Source: Schmidtea nova (lineage: Eukaryota). From it: a DNA stretch of 63,678 bases. Location of the stretch: positions 189,348,323 through 189,412,000 of the forward strand of contig CM097883.1 of the NCBI GenBank assembly GCA_044892505.1. The letters run 5' to 3'. Below are positions 25,029-48,335 of this stretch, piece after piece. The notes under the pieces were generated by a model, which searched no databases, was not told the origin of the DNA, and saw only the letters and a list, made by a program, of their open reading frames with translations. The position numbers and the translations under genes were made by a program. Position 1 is the first letter of the stretch; each line of letters starts with the position of its first letter.

Positions 25029-26685
25029 GTATGTATCATTTGTATATTATTTGGTTATGTGAAATTTATGTTATTATTTGATAAAAAATTTGGATAAAAT
25101 ACCTCACTACTACCGTTCTTGAACCTTTTAGGTACGGGTAACATCAATAAGCGTTTTTTGCGTAATACATCATATGATTATTTATTAATGATATGATATA
25201 CCTCTTATTCTAAATTAAAAATCAACAATCATTTTTAATCTTTAAATTTATCTTTAATTTGGAATCATCTTTTGTGACAGTAACACATAAATCTTTGTTT
25301 GAAAAAATATTTTTTTGCGTCCTGGGAGTGCGATTTTGCGAAATATACCTTTGCATAAAAAGTTAACTCGTTAGCTGCTATGAGATAGTAACCTTGATCA
25401 ATTTCCCACCAAATCGAAAAGCGCTAATTTTATTGACCTCAATGCAAATCGATTAAACGTGACTTCTCAAATTCTAGTTTACGAATATATGATATCTCGG
25501 TTTGGCTTTTGGGTGCAATCATTTCAGCTAAATGGGTTCACACTCAATTCGTTAATATATAAAAATTAGCACAAAGACCTATTTTAAATGAAATTTATTC
25601 AACAATAATAGTTTTCATTAATTTTTTTTATTGTAAGACTTTAAAATAATTCTTTTTTTGATCTATAGACTATAAAACAAAAGATATGAAAATTTTAAAA
25701 TACGTCGCCTTCCCGATATTTTAGAATGTGCTCTAGAGTAAAAAAAGGTTGGGAACCACTGCCCTGAATAGTAATGTTTAATTTAAAGTGTCATTAATTT
25801 GATCTTGACATACGTTTTTGACCTTAGTGTCGTCAAAGTTATTTAATTGTAAAATTTGACTTTAAATTGGCCTACATTAGTACCTGATATTAGACAAAAA
25901 ATAAGTATATTAAAATTACTTCATTAAAACCTTTCTCTTTGACCTACTTTATTCTAGGGGATCGACAAATATATGACTGAGACACATACTAATACTATTA
26001 AAAGATGTTTTTCATTTCAAATCTCGTACATACTATCACTGAAAAAACAGTCTAAACTGAAATTTGACAAACAACAAATATATATTTAAAACAAGAAGTC
26101 TTTAAGATGAATGCAAACAAAACAATTTTAATCACAAATTATGCCATGATACAAAAACAATAATAAAAAGGATTCGATACAAAATAAGATTCGTACCTGA
26201 TATTAGACAAAAAAAGAAATATATGAACCTTACTAAAGCTATATTAACAAATGGAAATTGATATTAAATTGGAGTAGATAAGATATATTTTTCGGTCATA
26301 AAAAGAAGTATGTATATTTTGTTGGGCCAGCCAAATAGAGGGAACAGTGAAATAAAAGTAGATTAATTAAAACAAAAAAGAGAAAAATAAGATAAAAAGG
26401 GGAATATTTATTTATTAAAAGAAAGGAGTAATATAATAAAAATATAGATAAACTAAGTACAAGCTATAAATAAAAATAAAGGAATTTCGAGATATTAACT
26501 GGCCCAGGAGACATCTAAAAAACAAAATAAATACAAATAATGGTAATTAAAACAAAATAAAAGTACTTGTTATTGAATAATTGTTTTTGAAACCCAGACC
26601 TCCGAGGAAGAATACAATCTAAAAAATAAAAATTAATTAGAATCAAGAACAATAATTAAAAACCACCCTGAAAATGGCCGAACCT

Positions 26686-26730
26686 GATTGGTCGGTCTAG
26701 ACACGACTGATCAGTATAAATACTGATCAG
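26686..26730 (+). promoter_or_regulatory. Candidate LTR promoter: inverted CCAAT box plus TATAAA inside a palindrome (copy at 52117-52161)
   Basis: GATTGG at 26686, TATAAA at 26715-26720, and AATAAA with a T/G-rich tract about 150 nt downstream. Confidence 0.6.
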
Positions 26731-27629
26731 ATTTTTCATAAAATCAGACGTTTTGACTAGAGTGAGACTTTAGTAGACTTTGTTAGACTGAAATTTAGAC
26801 TTTAACTAAAAATTCGCATTAGATTGTACATTGCCCCGACGACGATCACCGTTTAGACCGATTTTGATCAATAAATTTTCAGAATTCAATTGAGGTATTT
26901 TTGGTATATTTACGTTTATGATATCGTTGTATTCGTATGTCATTATCATATTATAATTTATTAGTTATCTCATTTTGATTTATGTTATATTTAAACTATT
27001 TAATCTATCATATTAATCTCGCGCCGTTGGGAGCTTTAGGTTCCCAAGGTGTCCGTCCGTGGCGTGGTGCTCGAGGGCTCCACACACGGTAAAGTAATAA
27101 ATAGTAAAGCATAATTTTATTAGTAGTGGTTGAGACTTGCACATGGGACACCCAACAAATCCGGGGAGTTATTTTCCGATCATTTTAGCTACAGAGGGGA
27201 CGATAATTTTTTGATAAAGCTTAAAGATATGAAAGAATTCTTTAACCGTGGGGAGGCACGAATTGTTGCTAGATAAACGTCTAATAAACCTTAGAAAATT
27301 AGGTCGACCGCATTTGGTACAAAGGAGCGTTTTTTCGAATAAGCTAGGGATACATGACGGGAGAGAGCTTCCGTTTTGAGGTATCAATATTTTGAAAATC
27401 CAAGCAGACAAATCACCATTTTTTCAACTATAATATTGATCGTAAACAGATAAAGCTAACTAGATACGAGAGTAATGCATACCGTAACGAACGACAGTTT
27501 CTCTTGATTTCAGCTAAGGTCTAAGGGGAAGGCAAATAATAAGGGTATCACGATGAGAGATAACATTTACTATGATTAATTATTGATGTAAATTGTAACT
27601 ATTATAAAATTCAGCATCGTTTTGGAATC

Positions 27630-28097
27630 ATGACTAAGCATAGATACACTATCAAAAAACGACAAGAACGAGCCCGAGTTAGCCCATTAAAGCCGGCTCC
27701 TTTCGAGATTTTACAGCAAATCCATCAAAAAATGTGGGCATGGCGCCGAGAGCTTGAAACCGCCTGTCCATTTACAGTATGGGACCATCCACGGCACCAT
27801 GTATGGTACCGGGGATGCGCTAGTTGGCCAATCATTCCAGATGAGGAATTCGAATCATGGCACGCCGCCTGGTTCGTTCTGATGCTAGATCAACGAGGAT
27901 TCCCGAAATGCGTGATATATTGGGGGTTCATTCCAGCCTCTACCTTCAAGGAATTGGGGTTCAAGTTCAATACAGCAATACGACCCCTTCGGGAAGCTGA
28001 GAGGATCCGTTTTCAGCAGGCCTCGTCCAATATCAACACAAATTTGCAAATTAAATCGATATTTTCGTATCGGGGAAAAATGACCGGAGATGGATAA
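27630..28097 (+). CDS. LTR-encoded ORF A, 155 aa, unknown function (Trp/aromatic-rich)
   Basis: ATG-initiated ORF in a GC-richer island, AATAAA about 30 nt after the stop, identical copy in the 3' LTR. Confidence 0.6.
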   Translation: MTKHRYTIKKRQERARVSPLKPAPFEILQQIHQKMWAWRRELETACPFTVWDHPRHHVWYRGCASWPIIPDEEFESWHAAWFVLMLDQRGFPKCVIYWGFIPASTFKELGFKFNTAIRPLREAERIRFQQASSNINTNLQIKSIFSYRGKMTGDG

Positions 28098-28415
28098 TTG
28101 AATAAATGGCCACCTATTTTTGAATTTAATAAATGTTTTAAAGAAGTCTGAAGTGTCTCATTTTGTTAATAGTGTTGTCATGTAGATTTAGTATTGTAGT
28201 TGTTATAGTCATTAGGAAATTCATTTATTAATACAAAATTAGTTCAATAAACCTTTTGAGTCTTCAATGGTTAGATAGTTAAATACTTTTGTAAAGAACT
28301 CGATAATTAAAAACATTAGTATACATCTCGTTTAATAATAATAAAGAGTAGACTAAATAAAATAACATTGTTGATAGGTCCTCCAGCGAATTTATCGTTA
28401 TAATATTCAGACAAC

Positions 28416-29000
28416 ATGCCGACTACCGAAAATTCCAAGAAAATCATGGGACAAATCCAAGAAAGGAAGTTGAGGGACCAGCAGCGACAGATCAAGCGAC
28501 TCACGGTCGCCAATGATGAATTAAGGGCGAAGTGGTTCTCGCCCGGACAAATGAAGGACCAGTCGAAAAAACTTGAGCGGATGCAGGAAGCACTGGCCGC
28601 AACCAAATTGGAACTAGATGCCGTCCAGCGGGAACTCCGAAATTGCCTGAACGCAGTAACAAGAAGTTACCTCGACTCCGAATTGCGAGCGCTAATCCGG
28701 CCGATCACGGCTCAGCGCTGGATACAATGCACTCACCAAGATGTCGCTTGCGGGACAGAAGATGATATCATCATGGCACCCACTCTTACAACGGAAGATT
28801 TGCCTATTTTTCTCAGTGATCCCCCGAGAATAATAGCGTCAGCACCGGTCATAAACCAACAGCTTCGAAAACATCGAATGGGATCGCGACAGCGCCGTCG
28901 TCGCCGAGAATTTGCAAAGCGCCTGGACGAACAAATCCACCACCTGAACTCCTTAACCGAAGCAGAGTTAATCCAGGAGATTAGCCTGGAGCTTGAATAG
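28416..29000 (+). CDS. LTR-encoded ORF B, 194 aa, coiled coil plus Arg-rich motif
   Basis: ATG-initiated, heptad-like N-terminal half, RQRRRRR motif, AATAAA about 40 nt after the stop. The single LTR difference inside it is synonymous (CTG/CTT). Confidence 0.7.
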   Translation: MPTTENSKKIMGQIQERKLRDQQRQIKRLTVANDELRAKWFSPGQMKDQSKKLERMQEALAATKLELDAVQRELRNCLNAVTRSYLDSELRALIRPITAQRWIQCTHQDVACGTEDDIIMAPTLTTEDLPIFLSDPPRIIASAPVINQQLRKHRMGSRQRRRRREFAKRLDEQIHHLNSLTEAELIQEISLELE

Positions 29001-29564
29001 GAAAACCTCAATGTAAAATAACAACCTGTCTTTATTATTTTAATAAAAGTATTACTGTGTAAAATTTTTCTCTCATCGTGTGAATTCACTAAATAAAATA
29101 AAATAACAATAGCTAAATCCTAGAAGTAAAAAATCGCAGCCGCATTTTCTCAAACCGACCGTTTCTACGCAGGGACTGATTAATTACATTGTAGATCAAT
29201 TAAGGAAAGTCGTTGGGAAAAGCGTATGATAGATCATAAGGATATGTAATACAAAATGCAGTAAGAAACGAACATCCATAGAATGTAAATGCGTAAGACC
29301 TTCTATCGGCAGCAAGGACCCGAGGGAAGATAAATGGGGAGTAGTTTTGGCAACAAAGCTCACCTGCCCATCATTTTTCCACCACCGTATGCAGTACCAA
29401 CTTGGCTAGTAGGGAATAGTCAAGGGCATACGCGTGTAGTAGTCATGTTATGTATGGTTATGGGCGTGGAATCCCTAGTATACGTACTCATCAACAGTCG
29501 TTCAATTAATGATTAACTATTTATTTGAATTACTTAAAACCCACCCATAATCCCAGCATAAATT

Positions 29565-29582: not shown

Positions 29583-29887
29583 CAACTTTGATTTTATGCG
29601 GAAAATGTGAACCCAATGACAACAGAGAAATTTAAAATCAGAATTTTGTGAGTAGAAATAGTAACCGAAAGAGTAATCGAGATAAAAGTGAGTTGCGTGT
29701 AAATAGATAATTACAAACAGAGAATTAAAACAAATTAGTAGATAAATTGAACAAATGCATTCATAAATAACAGGTCGGGACGACAATTTACTGAAACACG
29801 GGGGGAGGCTATAAAACTGTCAGAAACGAAACACAGTACTACTTTTCGAATAATATTAACACAGTAATTAAATAAATTATCTAGGAA

Positions 29888-30349
29888 ATGGAGGAAAAAC
29901 TGAAAGAAATCGAGGAATTTTTCAACACCGAGAACGATACATTTGAGACAGTCTGCGAAAAAATAACCCGAATAAGAGCATCCGAATATGAGGAACCTAC
30001 GACACAAACTGAGGAAACAACTGAGTTAATAAAAATCATAGAGAAAGTAAATAAACTCGATATAAATACGCGATATAAATGGTACAAAGCACGATTAGAG
30101 GATGCCGAGTTGAATATCAGATGCCGACATATAGAACAGCAGTTAAGCCTAACATATAACCGATGGATGTCGCAAGGGGTCGAAGCAGCAAAACAATATA
30201 AACAATGTTACATATGCGAAGACAGTGAAATCCAAATAATGTTTTTGCCATGTGGACATTTTCGATTCTGTAAAAACTGTGCGAATAAGTGTGATGAGTG
30301 CCCCATGTGCAGTTTCTCTGTAGCTGATAAAATTGTAGTTTATTTATAA
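29888..30349 (+). CDS. IAP-type C3HC4 RING finger protein (no BIR domain), 153 aa
   Basis: C-terminal CYICEDSEIQIMFLPCGHFRFCKNCANKCDECPMC...KIVVYL*, with the spacing and hydrophobic C-terminus of IAP/MDM2-class RINGs. AATAAA overlaps the stop. Confidence 0.85.
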   Translation: MEEKLKEIEEFFNTENDTFETVCEKITRIRASEYEEPTTQTEETTELIKIIEKVNKLDINTRYKWYKARLEDAELNIRCRHIEQQLSLTYNRWMSQGVEAAKQYKQCYICEDSEIQIMFLPCGHFRFCKNCANKCDECPMCSFSVADKIVVYL

Positions 30350-31617: not shown

Positions 31618-32164
31618 GATCGTCGACGATAATGAGAATAGTGCGCACCAGGAATTGAGAAATGCGAGTAAAGCTGATTATGCGACCTAAAATAATGCAT
31701 GCAAGTAGAATCGAGAAATAGGAGCTGACCGGAAAGACCGGCAGAATTAATAATTAGAGGCTAGCAGAGAGAAAGATAAAGAGATGATAAAATAATAATC
31801 GAGCCAAATGACTCAGGGAATTAGAGCGTTCGAACGACAAATAGATTGGGAGACCGCGGGAAAAATAATTGATGTATTTTAATAACCGATAGATAATTGT
31901 TATGACTAAATAGATAATTGTGACTAGTATATAGATAATTTAAATAGACTTAAATAAAGGGGAATCTGGGAATGGGGAAAATAATAGAAACCCAGTAATG
32001 AGAAGTCCCGTAAAAAGGGAATAAAAGCGCAACGATAACAATAGAGTATCGTTGAAGTGACATTTGTATTTTAGATAAATCAATCAAACCAAACCAAGCA
32101 ACCAAGGAAGAAAAGAATCGGAACACGATAAGACAGGAAAATTGAGTATACAAAAGTAATCCCG

Positions 32165-35100
32165 TTGAGAAAAGGAGAAAAGAGTGTCATAATAAAACCA
32201 GCAGAAAAGAATAAAGCTACCAAGAATAATAATCAGAAAGGCCTAAAAGGAAGTAAAGCAAGGCAGATAATAATACAAAAGTCGATTATCGAAAACGATA
32301 AATTATCAGTAACAAGCAACAGTTCAAGCAACAAAGAAAATCAAGCAGAACCCGAGAGAAACCCAATAAGTGAAATAGAAGTCGACAAAACCAACAACGA
32401 TTATATAGAAGAAATAGAAGACGAAGTAGAACAAGAAACAGAAAGTGACGATACCGATAACGATAGTAAAGCATCAGATAACGAATCAGCAAAAGAAACT
32501 GAGATCGACCGAAATTCGAGTGACGAACCTAACAGTGAACTAGAAACAAGAGGAAACGAAAGTAAAATAACTACAGACAGCGGAATTGAAATGAGCGAAC
32601 CCAGAGAAGAGATAAAAGACAAATTTTCCGGAGAACCGTTTAATGGAGATGCGAGTAAACTGGAAACTTTCTTAAAGGAATTTGGCATATTCGTGGAAGT
32701 ATGCAAGTGGAAACCAGAAACAACTGTAAGCAGAATTCAGCTATATTTGAAAGATAGCGCATTAGATCTATATTTGGAAGCAAAAAATGGAACTAATCCA
32801 CCTACAAGTTGGTCAGCGATAAAGGACTTTTTCCAACAAACCTTTGGAATAAACAAAGTATTGAATGAGGCATTCACGGAATTCTCAATGAGGAAACAAA
32901 AGATAAATGAATCGAATGCGGTATATGCAAGCGAATTGAAAAAGTTAGCAAAGTTGATCTTTAATCAAGACAGCCCAATAAATGAGGAGTTAATGGCAGC
33001 TATCTTTGTGGGAGGATTACGAAGACCCGACATAAGAGCGCAAGTTGGATGTCAAGGTTGTAAAACCATCGACCAAGCACTAGAAACAGCTAATAGATTT
33101 GAACTACACATGATAGGAAATGATGGTAGAATCTATTTAGCTATGGATACAGCACAAAACGAACAAGAAGTGAACCTGAATAACCACATTCCAAATTCAC
33201 AACAATTAAACCGACCACCACCGCAACGAAGGAATGAAGGGAATAAAGTATCAAATTACGGAAATCAAAACAATTACAACCCCCAAGGACCAACGAAACA
33301 ATGCAAAACATGTGGGAAATTGGGACATTGGCAACAAGAATGTTATCAGAACTTGAATTGTGGAAAATGTGGAGTAAAAGGGCATTCAGAGAGCAGATGT
33401 TACACAATAACCTGTTTTAATTGTGGACGACCTGGACACCTATCAAGAAATTGCGGACAAAGAAGCAATCAACGAGGAAACTGGCAGAATACCGGAAACC
33501 GACAAAACTATGGAAACCAACCAACTGTTGGAAACCGACAGAATTATGGAAATCAGCCAAATAATGGAAACCAACTGGAATACGGAAACCAACCAAATAG
33601 TAATAATAATAACCAAAATAAAAATACCACTAAAGAGATACATTTAATGCAAGAGGTTCAAAGATTGACGGAGCTGATAAACAATACAACCAGAGGAAAT
33701 CCGCAAACAGGTCAACAACAAATCAATATGATGAGAAAAATAGAAAGCGAAAACGAACGATTGAATCGGGAAAGTCAAGCACGACATGCTCAGGAATGGG
33801 CAAGAGTACAAAGAGAAGAGGAACAAAAACAGCAAGAAAGAGAACGACAACCTCTGAGAATCAATATGATGAGAGCAACCAATCAAACAAATTCCCACGA
33901 GAAAGAGACTACGCCGGAAATAAATTCAATGAAACCGAATCCAACTAACAATGAAGGACGAAAAGAAATAGTAAAAGAAGATGAAGAAGTAGAAAAAGAA
34001 ATAGAGAAGGAAGTGGAAACAGAGGCAAACCAGGAAGAGAAAAGAATGATTTGGAAAAAGGGAATGATGGTAATCCTGCCAAACGGTCATATGTTTCGAT
34101 TCCAATATAACATAAAGGAAGAAGTAGGAACATTGTTCAACAAAGTGAATGAAATGGCTCCAGGAGTAACGAAACTGCCCAGAGAAGCATTCCTAAAAAT
34201 AGAAGGTGCACCAGAAGTAAAATTGAAACTAACGGATACATGGGAAAACATGGGAGTAGTAGAGACAAAAAGAAATGTGATGGTAATCAAGGAAATAGAA
34301 CCAGAAGGAATTCCATCGCCAGTGCGTCACGAAACACGAATCAGTCGAATATTTAAAGGGAAAATGATACGAAGACGGTTGGGAGAAATAGACGAGTTAG
34401 AACGAAAATTGAGAAAGGTCGGAGTAGTAGACGACAAGAGTGAATCAACACAAAAAGCTATTAAAAGTGAAACAAGACCAACGGAAAATACACCAAGTGA
34501 AATCAACCAAATAAAACACATTAACATGTTGAGAGGCCAGGCAAAGAATTTTTCCGACGACGAAGAGGATAGTGACGTCAGTAGTCTAGCAGGGGACATG
34601 CTAGACGAACCGGAAATTGAAGACAAAAAGATAGAAGTAGTAAAGACACCAGAAACTATTCAAGTAAAAGAGGATGAGATCCAGAAATTATTAGATAACG
34701 CACTAGAAGTAATATATAATGAGGAATTCATCGACAAGAAACACTATCGGAAATTCATGAGAGCGATATTACAAATGAACTATAAAGAGTGGTTGCCAGG
34801 CCGGGAAGTAGAAACACTAAGCCAATACGTAGGAAAATTATTAAAAGAACCACTCCATGAATATATAATCCTAATAGAGATAAAAACATGTTTGCCAAGG
34901 ATTTGGATCAAAACTCCACTCACGGAAGATATTTATCAATGGGTAGAAGATAGATTAGGGAGTTCATATAAAAACAAATTCCTCTATTCACAGAATGGAC
35001 TAGTGAAGAAAAGGACGCATTTGATAGAAACAGGCATATGGCCAGGAGAGGTGACAACATTATCGATATGCGATGATAAGAGAGAAGAGAACCTACAAGA

Positions 35101-35170
35101 AGTAGCAAAGGAAGCAAATATGTGTTTCGAGAAGAAGATAAAACCACGGTTAGAATATGAGAAAGGATAA
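32165..35170 (+). CDS. gag: Gag (Ty3/gypsy capsid, 3 CCHC knuckles, Q/N-rich region) with a long C-terminal extension
   Basis: Capsid-like FNGDASKLETFLKEF...KQKINESNAVYASELKKLA; knuckles CKTCGKLGHWQQEC, CGKCGVKGHSESRC and CFNCGRPGHLSRNC. First in-frame ATG is at 32591. Confidence 0.93.
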   Translation: MRKGEKSVIIKPAEKNKATKNNNQKGLKGSKARQIIIQKSIIENDKLSVTSNSSSNKENQAEPERNPISEIEVDKTNNDYIEEIEDEVEQETESDDTDNDSKASDNESAKETEIDRNSSDEPNSELETRGNESKITTDSGIEMSEPREEIKDKFSGEPFNGDASKLETFLKEFGIFVEVCKWKPETTVSRIQLYLKDSALDLYLEAKNGTNPPTSWSAIKDFFQQTFGINKVLNEAFTEFSMRKQKINESNAVYASELKKLAKLIFNQDSPINEELMAAIFVGGLRRPDIRAQVGCQGCKTIDQALETANRFELHMIGNDGRIYLAMDTAQNEQEVNLNNHIPNSQQLNRPPPQRRNEGNKVSNYGNQNNYNPQGPTKQCKTCGKLGHWQQECYQNLNCGKCGVKGHSESRCYTITCFNCGRPGHLSRNCGQRSNQRGNWQNTGNRQNYGNQPTVGNRQNYGNQPNNGNQLEYGNQPNSNNNNQNKNTTKEIHLMQEVQRLTELINNTTRGNPQTGQQQINMMRKIESENERLNRESQARHAQEWARVQREEEQKQQERERQPLRINMMRATNQTNSHEKETTPEINSMKPNPTNNEGRKEIVKEDEEVEKEIEKEVETEANQEEKRMIWKKGMMVILPNGHMFRFQYNIKEEVGTLFNKVNEMAPGVTKLPREAFLKIEGAPEVKLKLTDTWENMGVVETKRNVMVIKEIEPEGIPSPVRHETRISRIFKGKMIRRRLGEIDELERKLRKVGVVDDKSESTQKAIKSETRPTENTPSEINQIKHINMLRGQAKNFSDDEEDSDVSSLAGDMLDEPEIEDKKIEVVKTPETIQVKEDEIQKLLDNALEVIYNEEFIDKKHYRKFMRAILQMNYKEWLPGREVETLSQYVGKLLKEPLHEYIILIEIKTCLPRIWIKTPLTEDIYQWVEDRLGSSYKNKFLYSQNGLVKKRTHLIETGIWPGEVTTLSICDDKREENLQEVAKEANMCFEKKIKPRLEYEKG

Positions 35171-35911: not shown

Positions 35912-38611
35912 CAACAAATAGTAGACATTTATCGAAATTGGCGGATTTGGCCAGAATGGGAAGATGTATTAGAAGAACTCAATCTCAACAGACGATTACT
36001 AACACCCGTAGAAAAGAAATGGAACGAACGAGGAAAATGTTGGGAACCAAAAGCAGGCGAATACGAAGAAGAATATGAAATGGGCATAGAAGACGATCAC
36101 AAACCGGAAACCGGAAGAGTCTGTATGGTAACAAGAAAAGCCATGCCAGCGGATTTAGACGGACCAGAAACGGCAACCATGTGGTTGGAAAGAGAGAAAC
36201 AAAAAACGGAAGAATTTGTCGAAATATTAAAAACCAATGCGCACGGCAAGAGAAAAGTAGTAAAAGGTCTCGCAGATTTTTTCGTAGTTAATGGAGAAGA
36301 CATAACATGCTTGCGTAAAGTAGCAAAAGCAATCGCCGAATACAAAAGAGTTAACGAGTGGTGTCCAGAACAATTGGATCACGTAATTAAAAAATGGAGA
36401 AACCAAGAATTCTCGCAGGAATCACCACAGAAAGTACACCTAAGAATAGTATATCCGAACCAAGAAAAGGAAGAATTTTGGGTAGGAATAGCGGAGAAAG
36501 TCCGAGACATTAAAAAGAAATTGAGATACGAACCACCATTCCATTTACAACACCAAGGACGATCATTAGATAACAGCTTGGAAATTGGAATAACGCCAGC
36601 GCAATTAGATATCGCAAATACATTGACAGTGGCAGCAATAGCAGGCCAACCATTGAAATTGAAAGAGGAAAAGAAACCAAAAGGAAGTATGAGTACGCCG
36701 AGCCCAATGAAATCTGTAATGACTCCAGGAACAAGCTCAGAACAAGCTAGAACAACACCAAGAGAGACAAGAGAAAGAACACCACCAGAACCATACGATG
36801 TAGACGAAAATTTTACAGATAGCGATGATATGTTAGAGGAGTTAATAGAGCTAACAAAAGAGAAAGATGATAATATTTTCGAAAGAATTCAAGAATTACC
36901 AACAGCAATACCGGTAACCAACACCGAAGATGAAGTTGAACAAGAAATAATCATCGAAGAAGTAAATGAAATAGCAGAAGAGGAAGCAAGGAGGGCAAAT
37001 GTAGAAAATGTACAATTCACACAAGAAATGGAAAGATGGTTAGAAGAAAGAGCCAATGAACCAAGAGACGTCACAGAAGAAACGGGACGAGAAACAAGAT
37101 TAGTAGAAACGGGCACGACAATGGACAAACGACCTAGAGGTAGACCCAAGATGGATCCAGCAAATGTAGTTATAAAATCAAGAGAGGAAAAAAGACGGGA
37201 TCAATGGGATTTGTGTCTAAAGAAACTAAATAAAATAGCCGAAACGAAAGAAAAAGAAACAACACAAACATACCAAGGCGAGGAATGGATATCAAAGATG
37301 TTAATGGAAATACTGGCAATAATCGATCCGGAATTAAAGAAATGGTGGAGAATAAACGAAATAAGCGAAAGGGCGAAATCACTGCATAGCGCCATCGCAC
37401 CAATCCTACCAGAACTAATAAAAGAGAAGACAATGTCAAACCACCTAGATTGGCAAGGAACCACGATGTTGATAAAGAAGTTAACGGAAGGAGCAGAGAC
37501 GGATAACAAATATTTAATAGCTATGGCATACACCATTTACAATCTGTTGACACTGAGTAGAGGTCGACTGAAACCCACAGCACTCGAAAGACATATAAAG
37601 AATACAGCCAAAATTATAGAGAAGGAAATAGAACCGTACATCATCAGTAAAGGAGGATGGGAAACATTCACAAAAACGAACCAAAAGAAAAACCAAGCCA
37701 AAAATATGAAAAGGAAATTCGAAGAGATATTGGGAGAATTGGAAAAGGAAAAGTCGGGAACAGGAAACGGGAAATCATCACTAAACTTGAGTTCTATCAT
37801 TATGATGATGTTAATATGGATGATTAGTACTGACGGAGCAACAGCATTTGAAGTATTCGATTGTGATCAAATGGCATTAGGTGAGAAATATTCACTACGA
37901 GGGACAGAACAATGTAAGGACGCAACCCCAACGGAGCTAAAAACATTAAAAAAGAGACAATTATACCACGTATATCAGGAAGCTGAACTGATAAGAACAA
38001 TGGTCAGAGAATGCAAAGTTTATAAAACCAGATTTGCTTTTTATTGTGGGCACCGCCATTATTCAGCAATCGTGATGCCAGGAACGGAAAGAGAATCGGT
38101 AATGCTGCAAGGAGAAGACTGTGAAAAATTATTCAAACATGGAGAAGTAGAGACTAGAGATAGAGTAAAGATAAGAGGAAAAACGGGAGTAATATTACAA
38201 CAAACATATTATGTAGCAGGAGCTATTACGGGAGGAGAAGGGTACTGCCAAGGAGCAACATATCCAATATTCGGAGTAGCAGCAACAAACCTAGTGGTAA
38301 TAGATACGTATACAGTGGAACTAAAAACGTACGAGGCATTCTTCGATCCAACGACGGGAGAAATGAAAACTCTACCTATGTGCAAAATCGAGTCAAACAC
38401 TTGTCAGACTGGTATGTCAACCCTAACCTACCAGATACGAGGAAAGGAATGTCAACTACAATTGCTAAAAGAAGCAGAATTCGACGAGATACAAGGGAAA
38501 ACCTTCCAAGAGGAAGAAGAAGACGAGGCAGCAAGAGGAAAAATACTTCAAGACACCGTACGAGGAGAGAAAAAGATCGAAATACGAACACAAGAAAACA
38601 AATTAAAATGA
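35912..38611 (+). CDS. Polyprotein segment: Ubl-like domain, AT-hook, Bcl-2-like domain, signal peptide, N-half of chuvirus-like glycoprotein
   Basis: The frame is open directly after TAA 35909-35911 (ORF-track start 36080). Motifs: KRPRGRPK; EIEPYIISKGGWETF; IIMMMLIWMISTDG followed by FDC...ECKVYKTRFAFYCGHRHYS. Confidence 0.8.
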   Translation, partial: QQIVDIYRNWRIWPEWEDVLEELNLNRRLLTPVEKKWNERGKCWEPKAGEYEEEYEMGIEDDHKPETGRVCMVTRKAMPADLDGPETATMWLEREKQKTEEFVEILKTNAHGKRKVVKGLADFFVVNGEDITCLRKVAKAIAEYKRVNEWCPEQLDHVIKKWRNQEFSQESPQKVHLRIVYPNQEKEEFWVGIAEKVRDIKKKLRYEPPFHLQHQGRSLDNSLEIGITPAQLDIANTLTVAAIAGQPLKLKEEKKPKGSMSTPSPMKSVMTPGTSSEQARTTPRETRERTPPEPYDVDENFTDSDDMLEELIELTKEKDDNIFERIQELPTAIPVTNTEDEVEQEIIIEEVNEIAEEEARRANVENVQFTQEMERWLEERANEPRDVTEETGRETRLVETGTTMDKRPRGRPKMDPANVVIKSREEKRRDQWDLCLKKLNKIAETKEKETTQTYQGEEWISKMLMEILAIIDPELKKWWRINEISERAKSLHSAIAPILPELIKEKTMSNHLDWQGTTMLIKKLTEGAETDNKYLIAMAYTIYNLLTLSRGRLKPTALERHIKNTAKIIEKEIEPYIISKGGWETFTKTNQKKNQAKNMKRKFEEILGELEKEKSGTGNGKSSLNLSSIIMMMLIWMISTDGATAFEVFDCDQMALGEKYSLRGTEQCKDATPTELKTLKKRQLYHVYQEAELIRTMVRECKVYKTRFAFYCGHRHYSAIVMPGTERESVMLQGEDCEKLFKHGEVETRDRVKIRGKTGVILQQTYYVAGAITGGEGYCQGATYPIFGVAATNLVVIDTYTVELKTYEAFFDPTTGEMKTLPMCKIESNTCQTGMSTLTYQIRGKECQLQLLKEAEFDEIQGKTFQEEEEDEAARGKILQDTVRGEKKIEIRTQENKLK

Positions 38612-41600
38612 GAAATACACCAACGGTACTAATTACCTCAGATGCAGATATCGGAATGAGGTTTGTAAAAGGAAAAACAGCTTTGAAATGCGGAGTAGCC
38701 ATGTTGGAAACCAACTACCCCGGCATTTTTGTATCAAAGCAAGAAGTACCTAGAGCGAAACGCAAAGTGCACACGAACGATGTTAAATTACACCTGTACA
38801 TGAACAATAAAATGGATTTTCTATTCCATAGAGGACAAGCGTCACTACAAAAAGTGTATTACGATTTAATAAATAACGATTGTATATTAAATAGGGAAAT
38901 ATTAAAGACAAAACTAGCAGTAGCAATCACAAACCCGGATAGTGCAATGCCACTATTACCATTAAGAGAAGGTCATTTTGGAAGAGTAGTCGGAGAGGTC
39001 ATGTACGTATACATATGTAAAAAGACAAATGCGAAGGTAGCGACAATGACAAAACTACAACCAGGTCAGTGTACTAACGAACTAGAAATCGAATATAAAG
39101 GGAAAGTAAGATATGTACAACCAGTGACAAGAATCATAAATCCAGTAAGTTTCGAACCAAACCCTTTCAATTGTAGCAACGCATATGGACCACTATACCA
39201 AAAACCAGACGGAAATTGGGTTATGTTTCCGTCAAGAACAGAGGTACCAGCACCAAGGGAATTTGAATTGATGCAACTATCAAAAGGGCGAAAATTCAAA
39301 GACGTAGATGTAAGTAATATGGGATTCTATAGCGCAAAAGACTTAGAGGCAGCGAGACAAAACATACTATTTCCAGCAAGAAGGGAAGCGGTGTTATCCA
39401 GCATTGTAACAATAACAGGAGGAACAAATTACCAAGGTGGACCAAATTACGAATTATTATTGTCACCAGCCCACTTTAAGAAGGCAACGGAAAACATGAT
39501 GAAAGCGATGTGGGGAAGATTTTTAATATTTGGACAAATGATGGCAGGAATACTTGGTGTTATACTAATTATACAAATAATACGGGTAATAATAACGCAA
39601 ATGTTAGCCTGTTTTGACATCTATAAACGAGAAAAGAAAGTAAATTGGAAATTGGTGGTAGGATTCTTACCATTTCTGGCTAAAACAATGGTATTACACG
39701 GTCATTCAAAAGATATTCACCGAATAAAGAGACTCCTAAAAATACTGGCAAAAATGAAAGGAACCGATGAAGAGGTGGGACGAAAATTTAAAAAGATAAT
39801 GAATAACGAGCAAGCAAGACAACGACTCAAGAAAGAGAGAAAAGGACTATGGGAAAGAATGAAAGGGTACAGAACCCAAGACGATTCCAGTGACGACGAT
39901 GATGATGATAACGAAGGAGGTCAAGTATTTAAAAACCAAGTACCAAAGTACGTCGAAAAGAATCCAGCGGAAATGTGGAAGTGTTACGCACCCCCACCAA
40001 CCATGTACCAAGAACCAACACCAGGGATGAGACAAAATACAATGCAAATGATGCCGATGACAAACATATATCCTATGATACCAGAAGACTATAGAACGAG
40101 ACGGTGCAGAAGCGTAGATCCGCAAGGAGACTCACATACAATTGCAGTAATGTCATCAAACACCGGTCCAGTATTAACTACAACAATCGAAATTAACGGA
40201 AGGGAAATTGAAGCGATGATTGATACAGGAGCAAATATCTCAGCAATAGATATAAAATGGATACCACAAGAACAAAGACGGGATATTGAGAGAACCAACG
40301 TTCACGTAATAGCATGCAGTAAAGAAGTAGTAGAAGTTGCCGGAAGATGGTGGGTAAAGATAAAACATCAAAACACGGAAATCGAAACGTACGTAGCAGT
40401 AATACCAGCACTGAGCGTACCATGCATTATAGGCACGGATCTGATGCCAGCATTATTTAAAGAAATAGTTATTGACCTCGGAACAATGAGATTAAAGGAT
40501 AGGACAGGACAGATATGCGCAATAGAAGCAAAAGTAACAAGTTCGAAACAAATAATCGTACCAGCACGGAGAGAGAAAATATGCTTCGTAAAAATAGATC
40601 CTACAATAGAAGGTGATATGATCTTTGAACCCAGTAAAAGATTTGAAAAGAGAAAGTCGTTGCCAATGGCAAGGGGATTAGTGAGTGCGAATGACAACGG
40701 AGAAATCCCAATAAATGTAGTAAATTTCGATGAAGAGGATAAAATAATTTATGAAAATGAAAGACTAGGTAAACTAACTCCAATGATGGATATCGAAATA
40801 CCAATAAAAGAAGGAGTAAAAGAGGAGGAACCCACCTGGAACATTGATAGCCAACTACTAAATGAGGATCAAAAGAAACAGCTAGAAAGGTTACTGATGG
40901 AATATAAAGACATATTCGCAGCATCCGATTTAGATCTAGGGACATGCGACGTCACACTACATACGATTCCACTAACAGACGAAACGCCTATTGCGTTAAG
41001 ACCATACAAGTTAGCTGAAGCGCAAAAATCAGTAGCAGAAGCAGAAGTACAGAAAATGCTAGACGCAGAAGTAATTGAACCAAGCTGCTCACCGTGGCAA
41101 TTCCCAGTTGTAATGGTGAAAAAGAAAGACGGAACACAACGGTTTTGTATTGATTATCGGAGATTAAATGCGGTAACAAAAAGGGATACATACCCATTAC
41201 CAGACATCAACGAGATGTTATTGACATTACAAGGAGCGGCATACTTTACATCATTGGATTTGAAAAGCGGATACTGGCAAATTAAAATGAAAGAGGAAGA
41301 CAAAGAGAAAACTGCTTTCACTATCGGAAGAGACTTGTACCAGTTTAGGAAAATGCCATTTGGACTAACCAATGCGCCAGCATCATTTCAAAGATGTATG
41401 AATTTCGTTACCCACGGCATAAAACAATGCATGGTTTACATTGACGACCTACTGATCTACTCAAGCACATTTGAACAACACATCCAAGATATCAGAGATG
41501 TATTTGTTAGATTGAGACAATGGAAACTCAAGCTCAAACCATCGAAATGCGATTGGGCAAAGGAGAAAGTGACATTCTTAGGACATATTGTGTCCGCAAA

Positions 41601-42843
41601 AGGAAAGGAACCAGATCCCAGAAACATTGATAAAGTAAAAGAATGTCCAGTACCAAAGACGATAACGCAGATCCAAGAATTTCTCGGATTATGCGGTTAC
41701 TATAGAAAATTCATAAAGGATTACGCAGGAATTGCAAAACCAATCCAGGAGCTAGTAAAGAAAGACGTATCGTTCATATGGGGAAGCGAACAACAAACAG
41801 CCTTCGAAACATTACGAGATAAGTTAATAACTGTACCAATATTGGTTCACCCGGATTTCAAGAAGCCATTTTTACTCGCAACCGACGCAAGTGGATATGC
41901 AGCAGGAGCAGTGTTAGGACAATATGATGACGAGGGAAAAGAGCGGGTAAACGGATATTATAGCAGAACATTCAAGAAACACGAGAAGAATTATTCAGTA
42001 ACGGAAAGAGAAGCATTGGCAATAATATTAGCAATAAAACACTTTAAATATCTATTATGGGGACACGTTATATGCATAACCACGGATCATCAACCACTTG
42101 TATGGCTAGGACAACATAAGGAAACATCCAGCAGATTAATGAGATGGGCGATGCAATTACAAGAATATTCACCAGATATAAAATTCAAATCAGGGAAAGC
42201 GAATGCCAACGCAGATTGCATGTCAAGATTAACGTTTCCAGAACTAACAGACCCAGAAGTGCAAAGAATATGCATAGTGATAGCAGAGGATTTGGATTTC
42301 AGCGAGTTAAAGAAAGATCAGCAAGAGGATAAAGAACTAAGACCCATCATAGAATTCCTAAGCTCACGGAATATGGATGTATTCAAAGACAATACGGAGT
42401 TAAAAGAACACATGAGGAAATACCAACATCGATACACAATAGAAAAAGGATGGTTGTTAATACAAGATGGAGAAAAACGATTAATGTGTCTGCCAGGTAA
42501 TAGACGAAAAGAGATAATAACTCAATACCATGACGGAAAGTTGGGAGGACACATGTCCGATAAGAAAACATTAGATCGCATGAGACAAAAATATTATTGG
42601 CCAACAATGGACGAAGACGTAAAGGAATGGATAAAGAACTGTTTAACTTGTGCCACAAGAAAGGATAGTGGGAAGAAATGGAAAAATCCCTTAAAACCCA
42701 AGCCGATACCAGCAGAACCAATGACTACCATTGCAATGGATGTAATAGGACCATTGCCAGAAAGTTTAAACGGGAATCAATATATATTGGTAATAACGGA
42801 TTATTTGACTAAATTCCCTGAAGCATTTGCGATGCCGGATTAA
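38380..42843 (+). CDS. pol: C-half of the glycoprotein (with TM) fused in frame to Pol: protease, RT, RNase H, integrase zinc finger
   Basis: PR MIDTGANIS (40222); RT FCIDYRRLN, PFGLTNAPASFQR and YIDD (41437); RH LATDASGYAAGAVL; IN HDGKLGGH...CLTC and MDVIGPL. Ends at a TAA where the consensus has Gln (MPD*KAKTVA). Confidence 0.96.
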   Translation: MQNRVKHLSDWYVNPNLPDTRKGMSTTIAKRSRIRRDTRENLPRGRRRRGSKRKNTSRHRTRREKDRNTNTRKQIKMRNTPTVLITSDADIGMRFVKGKTALKCGVAMLETNYPGIFVSKQEVPRAKRKVHTNDVKLHLYMNNKMDFLFHRGQASLQKVYYDLINNDCILNREILKTKLAVAITNPDSAMPLLPLREGHFGRVVGEVMYVYICKKTNAKVATMTKLQPGQCTNELEIEYKGKVRYVQPVTRIINPVSFEPNPFNCSNAYGPLYQKPDGNWVMFPSRTEVPAPREFELMQLSKGRKFKDVDVSNMGFYSAKDLEAARQNILFPARREAVLSSIVTITGGTNYQGGPNYELLLSPAHFKKATENMMKAMWGRFLIFGQMMAGILGVILIIQIIRVIITQMLACFDIYKREKKVNWKLVVGFLPFLAKTMVLHGHSKDIHRIKRLLKILAKMKGTDEEVGRKFKKIMNNEQARQRLKKERKGLWERMKGYRTQDDSSDDDDDDNEGGQVFKNQVPKYVEKNPAEMWKCYAPPPTMYQEPTPGMRQNTMQMMPMTNIYPMIPEDYRTRRCRSVDPQGDSHTIAVMSSNTGPVLTTTIEINGREIEAMIDTGANISAIDIKWIPQEQRRDIERTNVHVIACSKEVVEVAGRWWVKIKHQNTEIETYVAVIPALSVPCIIGTDLMPALFKEIVIDLGTMRLKDRTGQICAIEAKVTSSKQIIVPARREKICFVKIDPTIEGDMIFEPSKRFEKRKSLPMARGLVSANDNGEIPINVVNFDEEDKIIYENERLGKLTPMMDIEIPIKEGVKEEEPTWNIDSQLLNEDQKKQLERLLMEYKDIFAASDLDLGTCDVTLHTIPLTDETPIALRPYKLAEAQKSVAEAEVQKMLDAEVIEPSCSPWQFPVVMVKKKDGTQRFCIDYRRLNAVTKRDTYPLPDINEMLLTLQGAAYFTSLDLKSGYWQIKMKEEDKEKTAFTIGRDLYQFRKMPFGLTNAPASFQRCMNFVTHGIKQCMVYIDDLLIYSSTFEQHIQDIRDVFVRLRQWKLKLKPSKCDWAKEKVTFLGHIVSAKGKEPDPRNIDKVKECPVPKTITQIQEFLGLCGYYRKFIKDYAGIAKPIQELVKKDVSFIWGSEQQTAFETLRDKLITVPILVHPDFKKPFLLATDASGYAAGAVLGQYDDEGKERVNGYYSRTFKKHEKNYSVTEREALAIILAIKHFKYLLWGHVICITTDHQPLVWLGQHKETSSRLMRWAMQLQEYSPDIKFKSGKANANADCMSRLTFPELTDPEVQRICIVIAEDLDFSELKKDQQEDKELRPIIEFLSSRNMDVFKDNTELKEHMRKYQHRYTIEKGWLLIQDGEKRLMCLPGNRRKEIITQYHDGKLGGHMSDKKTLDRMRQKYYWPTMDEDVKEWIKNCLTCATRKDSGKKWKNPLKPKPIPAEPMTTIAMDVIGPLPESLNGNQYILVITDYLTKFPEAFAMPD

Positions 42844-44793
42844 AAAGCAAAGACCGTAGCAAGAATTTTAGTAGAGGAAATATGTTGTCGATACGGAACC
42901 CCGAAACAAATACTAACAGATCAAGGAACAAATTTTATGAGCGAAATACTAGATGAAGTAACAAATTACTTCAGAATAGCCAAATTACGAACGTCACCAT
43001 ATCATCCGCAAACCAACGGACAAACGGAAAGATTTAACGGCACATTGATTCGAATGTTATCCAATTATGTAAGCAAACACCAAACAGATTGGGATGAATA
43101 CGTAAAGCTATGTCTAATGGCATACCGAATGTCGATACACGCAGCAACAAAATTGAGTCCATTTCAATTAATGTATGGAAGGGAATGCAATATGCCAATA
43201 GATCTTGAATATCAACCACCTTTGTCTCAATATATGGAGGAAGATGATTACGTCACCAAATTCAAAGAACGAATGCAAGAGATATGGAAGACAGCAGAAC
43301 TAAACATAAAGTTTTATCAAGAAAGTTACAAGGACCTACACGATCAAAAGAAAAATGTTAAAACAAATGATCTTAAACCCGGAGATTGGGTAATGATAGA
43401 AACCCCAGAAATAATACCAGGAACCGTTAAAAAACTACAAAGACCAGGAAAAGGCCCTTACGAAGTTATATACAAAAAGGAAAACAATGTGAAGGTAAAA
43501 CTTGTTAATCGACCATTGATACGACCAATATACGTTAATACATGCAGATGTAAGAAAGTACCAAAAACAATAACCACAGCGCCAGAAGAACGAATAATAA
43601 CCAGATCCCAGACAGCCAGAATGAATATGCTCAGAGCAACCAATGAAAGTACCGAAGCAGAAAACAATCAACAAGAAAAAAGAAACAAGGAAATGGTACT
43701 AAAAGCCAGAGAAATAATGGGAAAATGGCATGTCAGAGACGATATATTAAGAGATATTCAGTCGATAATTAGTGATTACGCAAGGGGACTACCAACAAAA
43801 CCAGTCATTTCAGAACTACTGGAAAAAATTCCAGAAATACTTTCACTAGAAGACATAGGAGGACAACCAGCATTACATAACGCCATAAAATGGGGAGAAG
43901 TAGAGAGAGTAAAAGAATTTCTAAAAATCGCTAAGGAAACAAACCAACACCTTGGTTTTGGGAATAGCGAACAAGAAACACCATTAATGGTAGCAGCCAT
44001 CTACAAATCGGATAAAGCAATAATAGACGTTTTGATAAATGCCGATTTCAACTGGACGGAACGCGATAGAGAAAACAAAACAGTCTTGAATCACGCAATA
44101 TGGAGCTCAAATCAGATAATGCTCAAACAAATAATCGAGAAGGCCACTTGGGAAATAGACGAACTGATCAAAGGTGATATAATCAAGGAGGCAATAAAAA
44201 TCGGTAACTGCAAAACAATACGCAAGCTAATAAAATGGAAAAGATCCGAAAATGATACATGGGTGTTAAATATAAACGAGGTATACAGTGAAGGGCAAAA
44301 CACGTTATTACAATTCCTATTAAAATTAGTTTGTGATCAGAAAACACTGTTAATATTATTGGACAGAAGAAATATTACAATTTCCAAAAACAAAGAGGAG
44401 TGTAAATTCGAAAGTGAAAAAGAAGCATTATTCAGGAAAATTAGGGAATGGTGTGCAAAATCGCTAACCAAGACGATGACTTACAAAGATATATCCAATT
44501 TTCAAGATAAATACAAAACGGTGGAGGAAGAGTATGACAAACTAATAGACATATTAAACCACCCCGAAAAATGCAAACAATTCCTATGTCAAAAGGAAAG
44601 AGAAAGCAAAAGGAAATTTACACCACTTTTCAGCGCAGAGGTACCCTATCAAGAAAGGTTAGATGCGATACAGGACAAAGCAAAAGAACTATTACCAGAA
44701 TTCGAAAATTCTAAACATACACTGGAGATACTCGGATCAATTGTGGAAAGGTACACGCATATGCGGAAGGGACTTACAATGAAAACGATATGA
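42844..44793 (+). CDS. Integrase core and GPY-like C-terminus followed by ankyrin repeats
   Basis: Same frame as pol. ILTDQGTNF, TSPYHPQTNGQTERFN and KGPYEV, then GGQPALHNAIKWG, ETPLMVAAIY and KTVLNHAIW. Confidence 0.9.
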   Translation, partial: KAKTVARILVEEICCRYGTPKQILTDQGTNFMSEILDEVTNYFRIAKLRTSPYHPQTNGQTERFNGTLIRMLSNYVSKHQTDWDEYVKLCLMAYRMSIHAATKLSPFQLMYGRECNMPIDLEYQPPLSQYMEEDDYVTKFKERMQEIWKTAELNIKFYQESYKDLHDQKKNVKTNDLKPGDWVMIETPEIIPGTVKKLQRPGKGPYEVIYKKENNVKVKLVNRPLIRPIYVNTCRCKKVPKTITTAPEERIITRSQTARMNMLRATNESTEAENNQQEKRNKEMVLKAREIMGKWHVRDDILRDIQSIISDYARGLPTKPVISELLEKIPEILSLEDIGGQPALHNAIKWGEVERVKEFLKIAKETNQHLGFGNSEQETPLMVAAIYKSDKAIIDVLINADFNWTERDRENKTVLNHAIWSSNQIMLKQIIEKATWEIDELIKGDIIKEAIKIGNCKTIRKLIKWKRSENDTWVLNINEVYSEGQNTLLQFLLKLVCDQKTLLILLDRRNITISKNKEECKFESEKEALFRKIREWCAKSLTKTMTYKDISNFQDKYKTVEEEYDKLIDILNHPEKCKQFLCQKERESKRKFTPLFSAEVPYQERLDAIQDKAKELLPEFENSKHTLEILGSIVERYTHMRKGLTMKTI

Positions 44794-47762
44794 TGATCAT
44801 AAAAAGAGAAATGCCAGTGACTTTCTTATTAACAAAGAATGGAGTATTGCCAATACATAGAGCCTTACGAGCAGGAAAAGATAGGAGGGTAGTCGAAATT
44901 GCACGGTTGATGCAAGATTGCGGAAGTGACATGAACATGAAAGATAAAAAGGGAGATACCCTCATGATATTCGCAGCAAGAGCGAACACAAAAACCCGAG
45001 TGTTACAGGAACTGTACGAAGCAGGTGCAGGACTCATGGGAAGAACTAACAAAGACAGCTCAATACTAGACGTAGCGTTGTTAGCGCACAATTGGGAGGT
45101 GATAAATTTCATAAAAACAATCACAAATCAGGAGGAAATAGAATACCTTACAAGGACAGTTAAAAAAGCTAGCGTACATTCCATGATGCATAACGCTGAA
45201 CTAACTGAAGCAATACTCAATTGGATGAACCCAAACACCAATGAACCAGCATTCAGGATCAACGAGTGCATGGAACAAGGCCAAAATTTGTATATAAAGT
45301 GTGCATTAATAATAAACAAATGGCCAAAGATAATAGATATCTTCATGAGAAGAAAAGATTTACGATTCACAAACCACCCAAAGGAAACAGAACGTACGGA
45401 CAAATGGAAAGAACTAATGAAAACGTACCTCAATAATTGGATAAAAGCCAAGAAAGAGATTCTAGATTGTAAATTAACCGATAAGGAAATACCTAAGCAG
45501 GCAGAAACACAAGAATATGAAGCAAGTATACTCACAACCATAACGTATGAAAAAATGATAGAAGCAATTAATGTCGAGGACGACATTTTCAACGACCAAA
45601 GGGAAGGCGACAATACAGGAAACGACGACGATAGTACTCGAGAAAATCCAGAGGATCATGAGTTATCAGATAAAGAGGACAGTGAAGAGAAAGGAAGGGA
45701 CACAGAGAAAAATGATAAGAACAATGAATTTGGGAAACAAAGAAACAACAACTATAAAAATAAAAACGAAATAAAAAGAACAGGCTACAAACAAACAATA
45801 AACCCATTCTTTAAACCAGAACTATTATTACTAACGGTAATCATGACCTTAATTAGTCCAACTCAAGGAATGATATGTGAAGAAAGAGCGACAATACAAA
45901 TTGGAAACGCAAAAGGAATCGAACGAGTATGTTGGTCAAAAAAGGACAAAATATCGGGACAAAATAGTCCAATGGATTGCAAGATCTCAGAATACGAACA
46001 AGAAATCATAGAGATCGATGACCTAGAGCTAGATACTTGGTACAGAATGTGCACCGTTCGGAAACCAAAGGATCCGAGATCACATAAGACAATTGCATGT
46101 GCAAACTACCTAACGCCCAAAGTAACCATAACAATACAGCAGTCATCCAAAGGAGACTATGTTGTAGGAAAGTGTGGAAGAACAGAGACACAAGGAACAA
46201 AAAACAAGAAACCCCAGACAATAGACAGACGAACAACGCCAACTATACGAATTACCATAGACAAGCCCGAAGCAAGAGTAACCACAAACGAGACCGAAAG
46301 AGTGACTTACCAAACAGAATTACTATGTTTAGCACTCATATTAACAATGTTAAAACGGTTAGAAGAAGGGATAGACATTGACACAATGGCAGTAACAGAG
46401 ATGAACGACACCCAAAACACCAACCCAAAGTGTTATGCCAGAAGCAACGAAGAAATTGGCGTAAGCGAAATAAAGACGAGTCGGAAAAGGGAAACAAATA
46501 AAGTAACCAAGATATCAGAAGTAAAAGCAGACAGGACGTATGAACTATGTTTACTAGAAAAAGAAAGACACAAGAAAGGAACGACAATTTGTAAAACATT
46601 TCAACCTGGGGAAACAATAAAGTTCATAAGAAGAAGAAGAAGAAATATACGCACCAAACGGAGGACAACTACAATGTTAGAGTTAACCGGAATAGAACCG
46701 GACGTCAAAGGCGTATGCTGGAAGAAGCAGGAAAAGAAAACAAACCAGAATACACCGCCGCAATGTCGAACAAACAGAGGAACAACCACAATACAGATAG
46801 AAGGGTTAGAAAGTAATCAAACGTACGAAATATGCCTGATCAGGAAGAGCGACAAAATAACAGTAAATGAACTGGAATGCAAAATATATAAAACACCCAC
46901 CAGAACAAAAATTGGAAAGACATCGCGAAAAAGCAGAAGACAACGGAACAAAGGAAAAGCGAGGTATACCACTACTTTTAAACCTAATGGACAACAGAAA
47001 AACCAAGAAATACAAATAAAAACCGAAAAGAATACTACAGCAACTCTTATACTATGGAGAATAGACAATAAAACGTTAGAAATATGTTGGGTAATAGTTC
47101 AGAAACAAAGGGAAAGACAGCCACGAGACTGTGGAAACGTGAAAGGAAAAGAGGAAATAAGTATCAGGAACCTGAAATTCAATAGCGAATACGAGATATG
47201 TGCGATAGAAAAGACGGACATATTGGGAAATCAGCAGGAAAGATGCGAAACGTACTACACACCGGTAAACTCAACGTCCAAAGGGAAAGTGAGAAAACTC
47301 GAATTTAAAGAATTAAGTCAGACAACGAAACAAATGGACGCGGAACAAGTAGTAATAGACCCTTACGCAAGATGGACGCCGGAAGAAGTAATTAAAGAAG
47401 TTAAAAGAAAACAACAAGAACGAGAACAACTACTAAATAAACTAAAGGGACAATACGGACCAATGATTAACCAGAGTGAAATTACGAAGATGGACGTAAA
47501 CAAACAAGTTAGAGAACTAATTGGTCTAGGAATACTAGCAGCAACTATTCCAGTAATAACAGTATTATTAATAATATGGATATATGATGTATTCAACAAG
47601 AAACCAATAACACATTGGCCAGATATAAAGATTATGAACTACAGTATAGAATTACCGGAAGAAGTACATAAAGAATTCCAAAGGAGGACGAAAGGTAAAG
47701 AATTTTGGAGACAAATAGAAGATGAAGAGCGATACGAAGGAAAGACAGTGATGGTGATATAG
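44790..47762 (+). CDS. Ankyrin repeats plus internal signal peptides, FN3-like repeats and a C-terminal TM helix, 990 aa
   Basis: ANK: VLPIHRALRAG, GDTLMIFAARAN, SSILDVALLAH. Repeated ..CW.....C....I.I.GL....YEIC units. TM LIGLGILAATIPVITVLLIIWIY. Confidence 0.75.
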   Translation: MMIIKREMPVTFLLTKNGVLPIHRALRAGKDRRVVEIARLMQDCGSDMNMKDKKGDTLMIFAARANTKTRVLQELYEAGAGLMGRTNKDSSILDVALLAHNWEVINFIKTITNQEEIEYLTRTVKKASVHSMMHNAELTEAILNWMNPNTNEPAFRINECMEQGQNLYIKCALIINKWPKIIDIFMRRKDLRFTNHPKETERTDKWKELMKTYLNNWIKAKKEILDCKLTDKEIPKQAETQEYEASILTTITYEKMIEAINVEDDIFNDQREGDNTGNDDDSTRENPEDHELSDKEDSEEKGRDTEKNDKNNEFGKQRNNNYKNKNEIKRTGYKQTINPFFKPELLLLTVIMTLISPTQGMICEERATIQIGNAKGIERVCWSKKDKISGQNSPMDCKISEYEQEIIEIDDLELDTWYRMCTVRKPKDPRSHKTIACANYLTPKVTITIQQSSKGDYVVGKCGRTETQGTKNKKPQTIDRRTTPTIRITIDKPEARVTTNETERVTYQTELLCLALILTMLKRLEEGIDIDTMAVTEMNDTQNTNPKCYARSNEEIGVSEIKTSRKRETNKVTKISEVKADRTYELCLLEKERHKKGTTICKTFQPGETIKFIRRRRRNIRTKRRTTTMLELTGIEPDVKGVCWKKQEKKTNQNTPPQCRTNRGTTTIQIEGLESNQTYEICLIRKSDKITVNELECKIYKTPTRTKIGKTSRKSRRQRNKGKARYTTTFKPNGQQKNQEIQIKTEKNTTATLILWRIDNKTLEICWVIVQKQRERQPRDCGNVKGKEEISIRNLKFNSEYEICAIEKTDILGNQQERCETYYTPVNSTSKGKVRKLEFKELSQTTKQMDAEQVVIDPYARWTPEEVIKEVKRKQQEREQLLNKLKGQYGPMINQSEITKMDVNKQVRELIGLGILAATIPVITVLLIIWIYDVFNKKPITHWPDIKIMNYSIELPEEVHKEFQRRTKGKEFWRQIEDEERYEGKTVMVI

Positions 47763-48244: not shown

Positions 48245-48335
48245 ATAAATAAAGCGAAAAATTGTAAATATGTAAAAACAAAAACAAGAAAAATCAAAAA
48301 ATAGATAACAAATCAAGTGTATATATCATTGTAGA

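Follow-up and report, generated by a model that had tools for sequence, protein, structure and literature searches.

Planarian genomes carry the giant Gypsy-like LTR retroelements Burro1–4 and GYPSM1, described in PMC6431247 with reference to Grohme 2018 and Jurka 2007. In the available text of that paper, a BCL2-like motif is noted in Burro-2, -3 and -4, a ubiquitin-like domain is described ahead of it, and Env is placed in frame, after BCL2 and before the protease (PR); an element from Dugesia tigrina contains an ORF of 5,140 aa. A Bcl-2-like domain before Env is thus already known for Burro elements, and the same text calls experimental confirmation wanting. Burro elements are expressed and abundant according to the accessible portions of PMC8532177 and PMC11410931, and an excerpt of PMC13465017 reports, second-hand, that the IAP cargo of Burro1 protects stem cells from apoptosis. 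Our literature search, whose coverage did not extend to Grohme 2018 and Lee 2026, returned no report in which the function of the Bcl-2 domain of Burro was tested. The presence of such a domain in a Burro-type element is no surprise, being on record. Here we add the bounds of the domain, selection data and a graded BH1 series over six element families, and we point to a possible donor lineage in the host.

The window, a 63,678-nt stretch of the Schmidtea nova genome, contains an LTR retroelement of 28,670 bp (26320-54989) that encloses the Bcl-2-like domain and is flanked by a 4-bp target duplication, ATTT. Its modules run in the order Gag, Bcl-2, signal peptide, Env, PR, RT, RH, IN, ankyrin (Table 1). 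In size, the element resembles the Burro group, whose members are about 30 kb long with multi-kb LTRs. It shares with them one huge ORF, 5,140 aa there and stop-to-stop frames of 5134-5162 codons in sister copies here, the frame of the window copy being broken. As far as the available Burro descriptions go, the BCL2-like motif, the in-frame mononegavirus-like Env, PR, ankyrins and MATH/TRAF cargo are also shared, whereas the TRAF ORF follows the polyprotein here and is described as upstream or internal there. The three CCHC knuckles that we count by eye are another difference. Ubl and dUTPase-like domains went undetected by Pfam in the window. The segment 36440-36640, which has a ubiquitin-like appearance by eye, gave no Pfam match, and the homolog P0002 gave a weak one (E=0.0046). 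The RING of the first accessory ORF is presumably IAP-type. Unlike Burro1, published as BIR plus RING, neither this ORF nor the other window ORFs scanned gave a Pfam match to BIR; the element may lack a BIR exon, or splicing may join one to the RING.

Table 1. Positions of element features in the window
Feature	Position	Strand	Basis or detail
5' LTR	26320..29558	+	3239 bp, ends TG...CA, 2 mismatches against the 3' LTR
Accessory ORF with C3HC4 RING	29885..30349	+	PF13920, E=1.2e-11
Gag part of polyprotein, CCHC knuckles	32132..35170	+	Pfam; stop at its end in window copy
Open frame of 899 codons with Bcl-2-like domain and Env start	35912..38611	+	ORF list, Pfam
Additional predicted helix before the Bcl-2 core, relaxed BH3-like pattern lacking Asp	37193..37255	+	structure model, motif scan
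Bcl-2-like core, predicted helices 1-8	37280..37693	+	profiles, structure model
Eroded BH1 site	about 37487-37513	+	alignment
BH2	37634-37660	+	GGW at 37652-37660
Env signal peptide, candidate tail anchor: hydrophobic segment (37787-37828) and predicted signal-peptidase site	37787..37846	+	hydropathy; anchor role putative
Env, Monjiviricetes-type fusion glycoprotein	37847..39630	+	PF24664, E=2.4e-19 and 2.5e-51; two frames in window copy
Protease, RT, RNase H, integrase	40180..43010	+	Pfam; stop 42841-42843 in window copy
Ankyrin-repeat blocks (n=2), after integrase	43870..45115	+	Pfam
Accessory TRAF-like ORF (zf-TRAF, MATH), downstream of polyprotein	48309..49718	+	Pfam
3' LTR	51751..54989	+	LTR pair comparison

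The window copy itself is damaged. Its long polyprotein frame is interrupted by stops at 35168-35170, 35909-35911 and 42841-42843, and the frame changes near 38600 and 44750. Multiple stops and frame changes, set beside only 2 differences in 3239 LTR positions, suggest that the copy was already defective at insertion or that the assembly contains errors. Given the stops upstream, the domain likely cannot be made from the polyprotein of this copy. Neither these stops nor the Burro publication had been noticed in the original prediction. At 34961-35377, a perfect 207-nt tandem duplication (spacing 210) carries one of these stops at its junction. In many sister copies, by contrast with the broken window frame, the domain sits in an unbroken one. 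In a search of the genome, 150 of 1048 candidates were scored, and all of these match at 85-100% identity; 82 of the 150 reach at least 94% (hand count), 31 of these in the 5134-5162-codon frames, and a stop falls within the match in 5/150.

A Bcl-2-like domain inside a retrotransposon polyprotein had been predicted at 37280..37680 from the sequence alone, and our analysis confirms it. The predicted coordinates agree with the core as aligned by structure, which spans 37286-37693 or about residues 33-168 of the model. The 29 residues that had been likened to the helix 6-to-BH2 segment of Bcl-xL lie at 37583-37669 and the segment at the BH1 position at about 37478-37531, both in the + strand 899-codon frame. 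BH1 is indeed divergent, reading T-D-N-K where Bcl-xL has N-W-G-R, so the NWGR motif is missing from the window. Across families, this site is graded: N-W-D-R in the sister element L026, G-I-x-x-x-R/K in families B, C and D, and the basic residue alone in A, A' and E. BH2 is far steadier. Its two glycines are invariant in 16/16 element sequences, and its first Trp is a Tyr in the window. A strict-pattern, canonical BH3 was absent from all eight element sequences scanned. A relaxed BH3-like pattern occurs in 7/8, on a helix in front of the fold whose distance to the end of BH2 is 127-145 residues, compared with 99-102 residues in two host-type proteins; the chance rate of the pattern is 2-4% per sequence, and it was picked post hoc in related sequences. 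This extra helix before the fold is a small new point.

Whether the domain belongs to the Bcl-2 family cannot be read from the window sequence by itself. The 29-mer alone matches Bcl-xL at E=0.85, not beyond chance, with an unrelated NifU protein ranking first. The 177-aa domain scores 13.4 bits (E=0.12) on Pfam PF00452, under the curated cut-off of 31.4. Searched singly, it found no PDB match at E<=10 and nothing among longer proteins or in the ESM Atlas, and an alignment-based search of short proteins returned solely P0004, itself a member of the alignment. Significance comes instead from relatives. On a profile of families B, C and D only, with the window excluded, the window domain scores 14.8 bits, whereas none of 1983 reported shuffles exceeds 10.7; a profile built solely from host Bcl-2 exons gives it 16.6 bits, against 10.1 for the best of 1000 shuffles. 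The sister element L026 reaches 34.6 bits on PF00452, over the cut-off, and families B, C and D, with the gene order Gag, Bcl-2, Env, PR as in the window, give E=6e-7, 3e-8 and 9e-5. Overall, 15/16 aligned element sequences match PF00452 at E<=1 (best 2.8e-8). One family C copy alone finds Bcl-xL at E=2.9e-6, far above Bax, with N-W-D-R aligned to N-W-G-R. An 11-row element profile, 8 rows of which are sister families, has Bcl-xL as its top PDB match (E=1.6e-8), and comparison of the element profile with a host Bcl-2 profile gave 96%. Hence, the proposed Bcl-xL likeness holds through relatives and leave-out profiles, though not for the 29-mer taken alone, and the window domain is almost certainly a Bcl-2 homolog.

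Wider searches place the domain in a family of elements. A PF00452 search of the genome (150 of 1679 candidates scored) put at least 33 loci over the cut-off; among the best 30, 16 match the window frame by tblastn, through the domain and/or Env, and the other 14 are host-type exons. In all, six element families were found (A, A', B, C, D, E). The sister families B, C and D (L047, L071, L072) have much shorter frames of about 2990-3080 codons, with the Bcl-2 domain retained and a better BH1. Among 1.84 billion representatives, 12 matched: six with Gag or Env context, three short fragments that group with the elements, and three of host type.

Structure prediction agrees with the sequence profiles. 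To avoid circularity, the folding alignment held no host Bcl-2 rows; from this 21-row, element-only alignment, AlphaFold returned an all-helical model with pLDDT 70.4 and pTM 0.70. A single-sequence model (pLDDT 49) was set aside. Both models bear out the all-helical character predicted for the region. The Foldseek and profile comparisons proposed with the prediction put Bcl-xL first in each case, and sister families match PF00452 as given above; in Foldseek, Bcl-xL has E=1.3e-3 and probability 1.00, and all 42 matches listed are Bcl-2 family, at modest scores with none at E<=0.001 and TM 0.3-0.6. The best viral match, in BFVD, is weak (E=0.085). In a VIA structure comparison, 15 of the best 50 rows are Bcl-2 family proteins aligned over 105-122 residues, with Hydra Bcl-2-4 (121 residues) and BHRF1 (116 residues) both at Z 8.1; unrelated helical bundles reach Z 8.9 over 77 residues. 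The model fits an eight-helix Bcl-2 bundle over residues about 33-168, which is not proof by itself. Taken together with profile comparison and leave-out tests, however, the Foldseek result upholds the proposal of a captured Bcl-2-family domain.

Set beside cellular Bcl-xL and PF00452, the element domain retains BH2, a helix 5-6 hairpin, the predicted bundle and a hydrophobic tail past BH2. It differs in its identity of about 12-14%, its eroded BH1 and its lack of a strict BH3; its tail is farther from BH2 and doubles as a signal peptide, and the domain forms part of a polyprotein. The viral Bcl-2 proteins BHRF1, A179L, KsBcl-2, M11L, F1L and DPV022 align at VIA Z 7.2-8.1 with rmsd 2.8-3.8 over 105-120 residues. 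They too are captured host genes in which, according to the available text of PMC7022251, BH motifs may be absent, but each is a separate gene in a large DNA virus, and their activity has been shown.

The domain is under purifying selection. Between the window copy and A', an 86% subfamily, dN/dS is 0.058 (0.027-0.099) in the domain, compared with 0.148 in the acidic linker, 0.087 at the start of Env and about 0.015 in PR and RNase H, with dS near saturation. The core has an uncorrected pN/pS of 0.10; the value is 0.20 in family B, and two close family D copies give 0.82 with a broad interval (0.29-4.1). Within the domain, the groove-lining helices 2-4 have the lowest pN/pS (0.07), with a confidence interval that overlaps those of other parts. 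Purifying selection acts on the whole polyprotein, so a low dN/dS is no specific sign of an apoptotic role.

Phylogeny suggests a host source. In two trees, both without a root, the 16 element domains fall together on one side of a branch (support 99/96 and 99/99); the element homologs were gathered by the element profile, so that sampling is biased. The trees exclude those host loci whose frames contain stops (L027, L037, L041, L044), and the second also omits L018 and L024, which have long branches. Env and domain trees have two well-supported groups in common. From sequence comparison, this pattern suggests a single old capture of the domain from a host gene. Divergent host Bcl-2 paralogs from the same genome (L021, L023, L027, L035, L041, L044), together with P0008, group with the element domains, apart from other host-type Bcl-2s, at 87/84 and 97/99. 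They form an expanded, divergent subfamily on a long branch, with short frames, no clear BH3 and no element context; GT..AG intron signals are present in three of the five examined, and another has a GT donor-like site. Given the long branch, the group is only a hint of the donor lineage. A host Bak/Bax BH3 exon was not found in four stretches near L020 and L022. A poxvirus origin of the domain was considered and is not favoured. Sister families retain a cell-like BH1, and outside the elements the closest sequences are host genes with introns; BH1 has therefore eroded within the element lineage. The parallel drawn in the original prediction to poxviral Bcl-2-fold proteins therefore stands as an analogy alone: sister BH1 sites, the best match (Bcl-xL) and the host relatives all speak against more.

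How might such a domain act? We propose that it was captured from a host mRNA and would be translated in frame within a Gag-Env polyprotein, whose Env signal peptide would bring the chain to the ER. Signal peptidase would release Env and leave the Bcl-2 part tail-anchored on the cytosolic ER face, and the element protease would cleave upstream of it. The original prediction had suggested that the signal peptide could double as a membrane anchor. Its placement fits in 11/11 element sequences, where a hydrophobic segment lies 28-57 residues past BH2, just before Env; in the window, segment 37787-37828 is followed by a small-residue site and then the start of the Pfam fusion-glycoprotein match. 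Anchoring itself is a plausible reading of this arrangement. The nearest candidate protease motif in family A lies 577 residues ahead of the signal-peptide site, and by pattern the motif is absent in four of six own-genome families tested, including the upstream stretches of B, D and E. The freed domain would then promote survival of the host cell during expression of the element, a pro-survival role that we consider on balance probable. A working Bcl-2 would give a retroelement control of the mitochondrial step, beside the reported IAP protection of planarian stem cells.

One weak point of this reading is the groove. The N-W-G-R residues have a role in BH3 binding, and T-D-N-K at their site argues against the canonical interaction. 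Judged from its motifs, a pro-survival or decoy role is likely, with BH3 binding uncertain given the eroded BH1 and the missing canonical BH3. As a decoy, the domain would act independently of the groove and interfere with innate-immune or NF-kB-type signalling, in the manner of vaccinia A52, B14, K7 or N1. Bcl-2 folds of this kind exist, as the consulted portion of PMC7022251 describes; BH1 is eroded in the clade of the window, and the same element carries TRAF and ankyrin cargo. Sequence and structure matches, however, are to pro-survival cellular and viral Bcl-2s, the review's available text places NF-kB activity in poxviruses and reports none found outside them, and the groove-lining helices are the most constrained, within overlapping intervals. 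We regard the decoy as unlikely. That A52, B14, K7, N1 and A46 have no entry among the best 50 VIA rows is not evidence either way. Still less probable is a structural spacer or matrix-like piece linking Gag to the membrane and Env in particle assembly: the site between Gag and the Env signal peptide is constant in all families with context, and other host-directed cargo sits in separate ORFs or past the integrase, but an invariant BH2 and a BH1-like motif retained in sister families exceed what a spacer needs.

A BH3 marks pro-apoptotic Bcl-2 members (PMC7022251, in the part available), and its absence in strict form counts in favour of the pro-survival reading. The relaxed BH3-like helix in 7/8 sequences, with weak Bax and BAK matches, raises the idea of a pro-apoptotic or pore-forming Bax/Bak-like protein that aids particle exit. 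We consider this very improbable, as no strict BH3 is present, the helix stands farther from the end of BH2 than in the host-type proteins, and Bcl-xL ranks far above Bax. The least credible alternative is that a helical linker resembles BH2 by chance, as the insignificance of the window sequence alone and the poor single-sequence model might suggest; leave-out profile tests largely refute it, and the PF00452, profile and Foldseek matches across element sequences also speak against it. A further reading is a self-gated switch, in which the conserved BH3-like helix would occupy the domain's own groove until the element protease opened the groove or freed a BH3-like peptide. Such a switch is a long shot; if real, it would allow the element to tie the timing of survival and death of the host cell to its own maturation.

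Further features of the element lie outside the polyprotein domains listed above. Each LTR contains open frames of 173 and 198 codons (27576-28097 and 28404-29000; 3' copies 53007-53528 and 53835-54431) without a clear Pfam family. Past the ankyrins, the frame gave no Pfam match over 45800-47600; this part contains another stretch resembling a signal peptide, repeated modules with Cys/Trp, and, near 47532, a strong transmembrane segment. Tandem arrays with units of about 30, 41 and 43 nt occupy 30761-31633, which separates the RING ORF from Gag.
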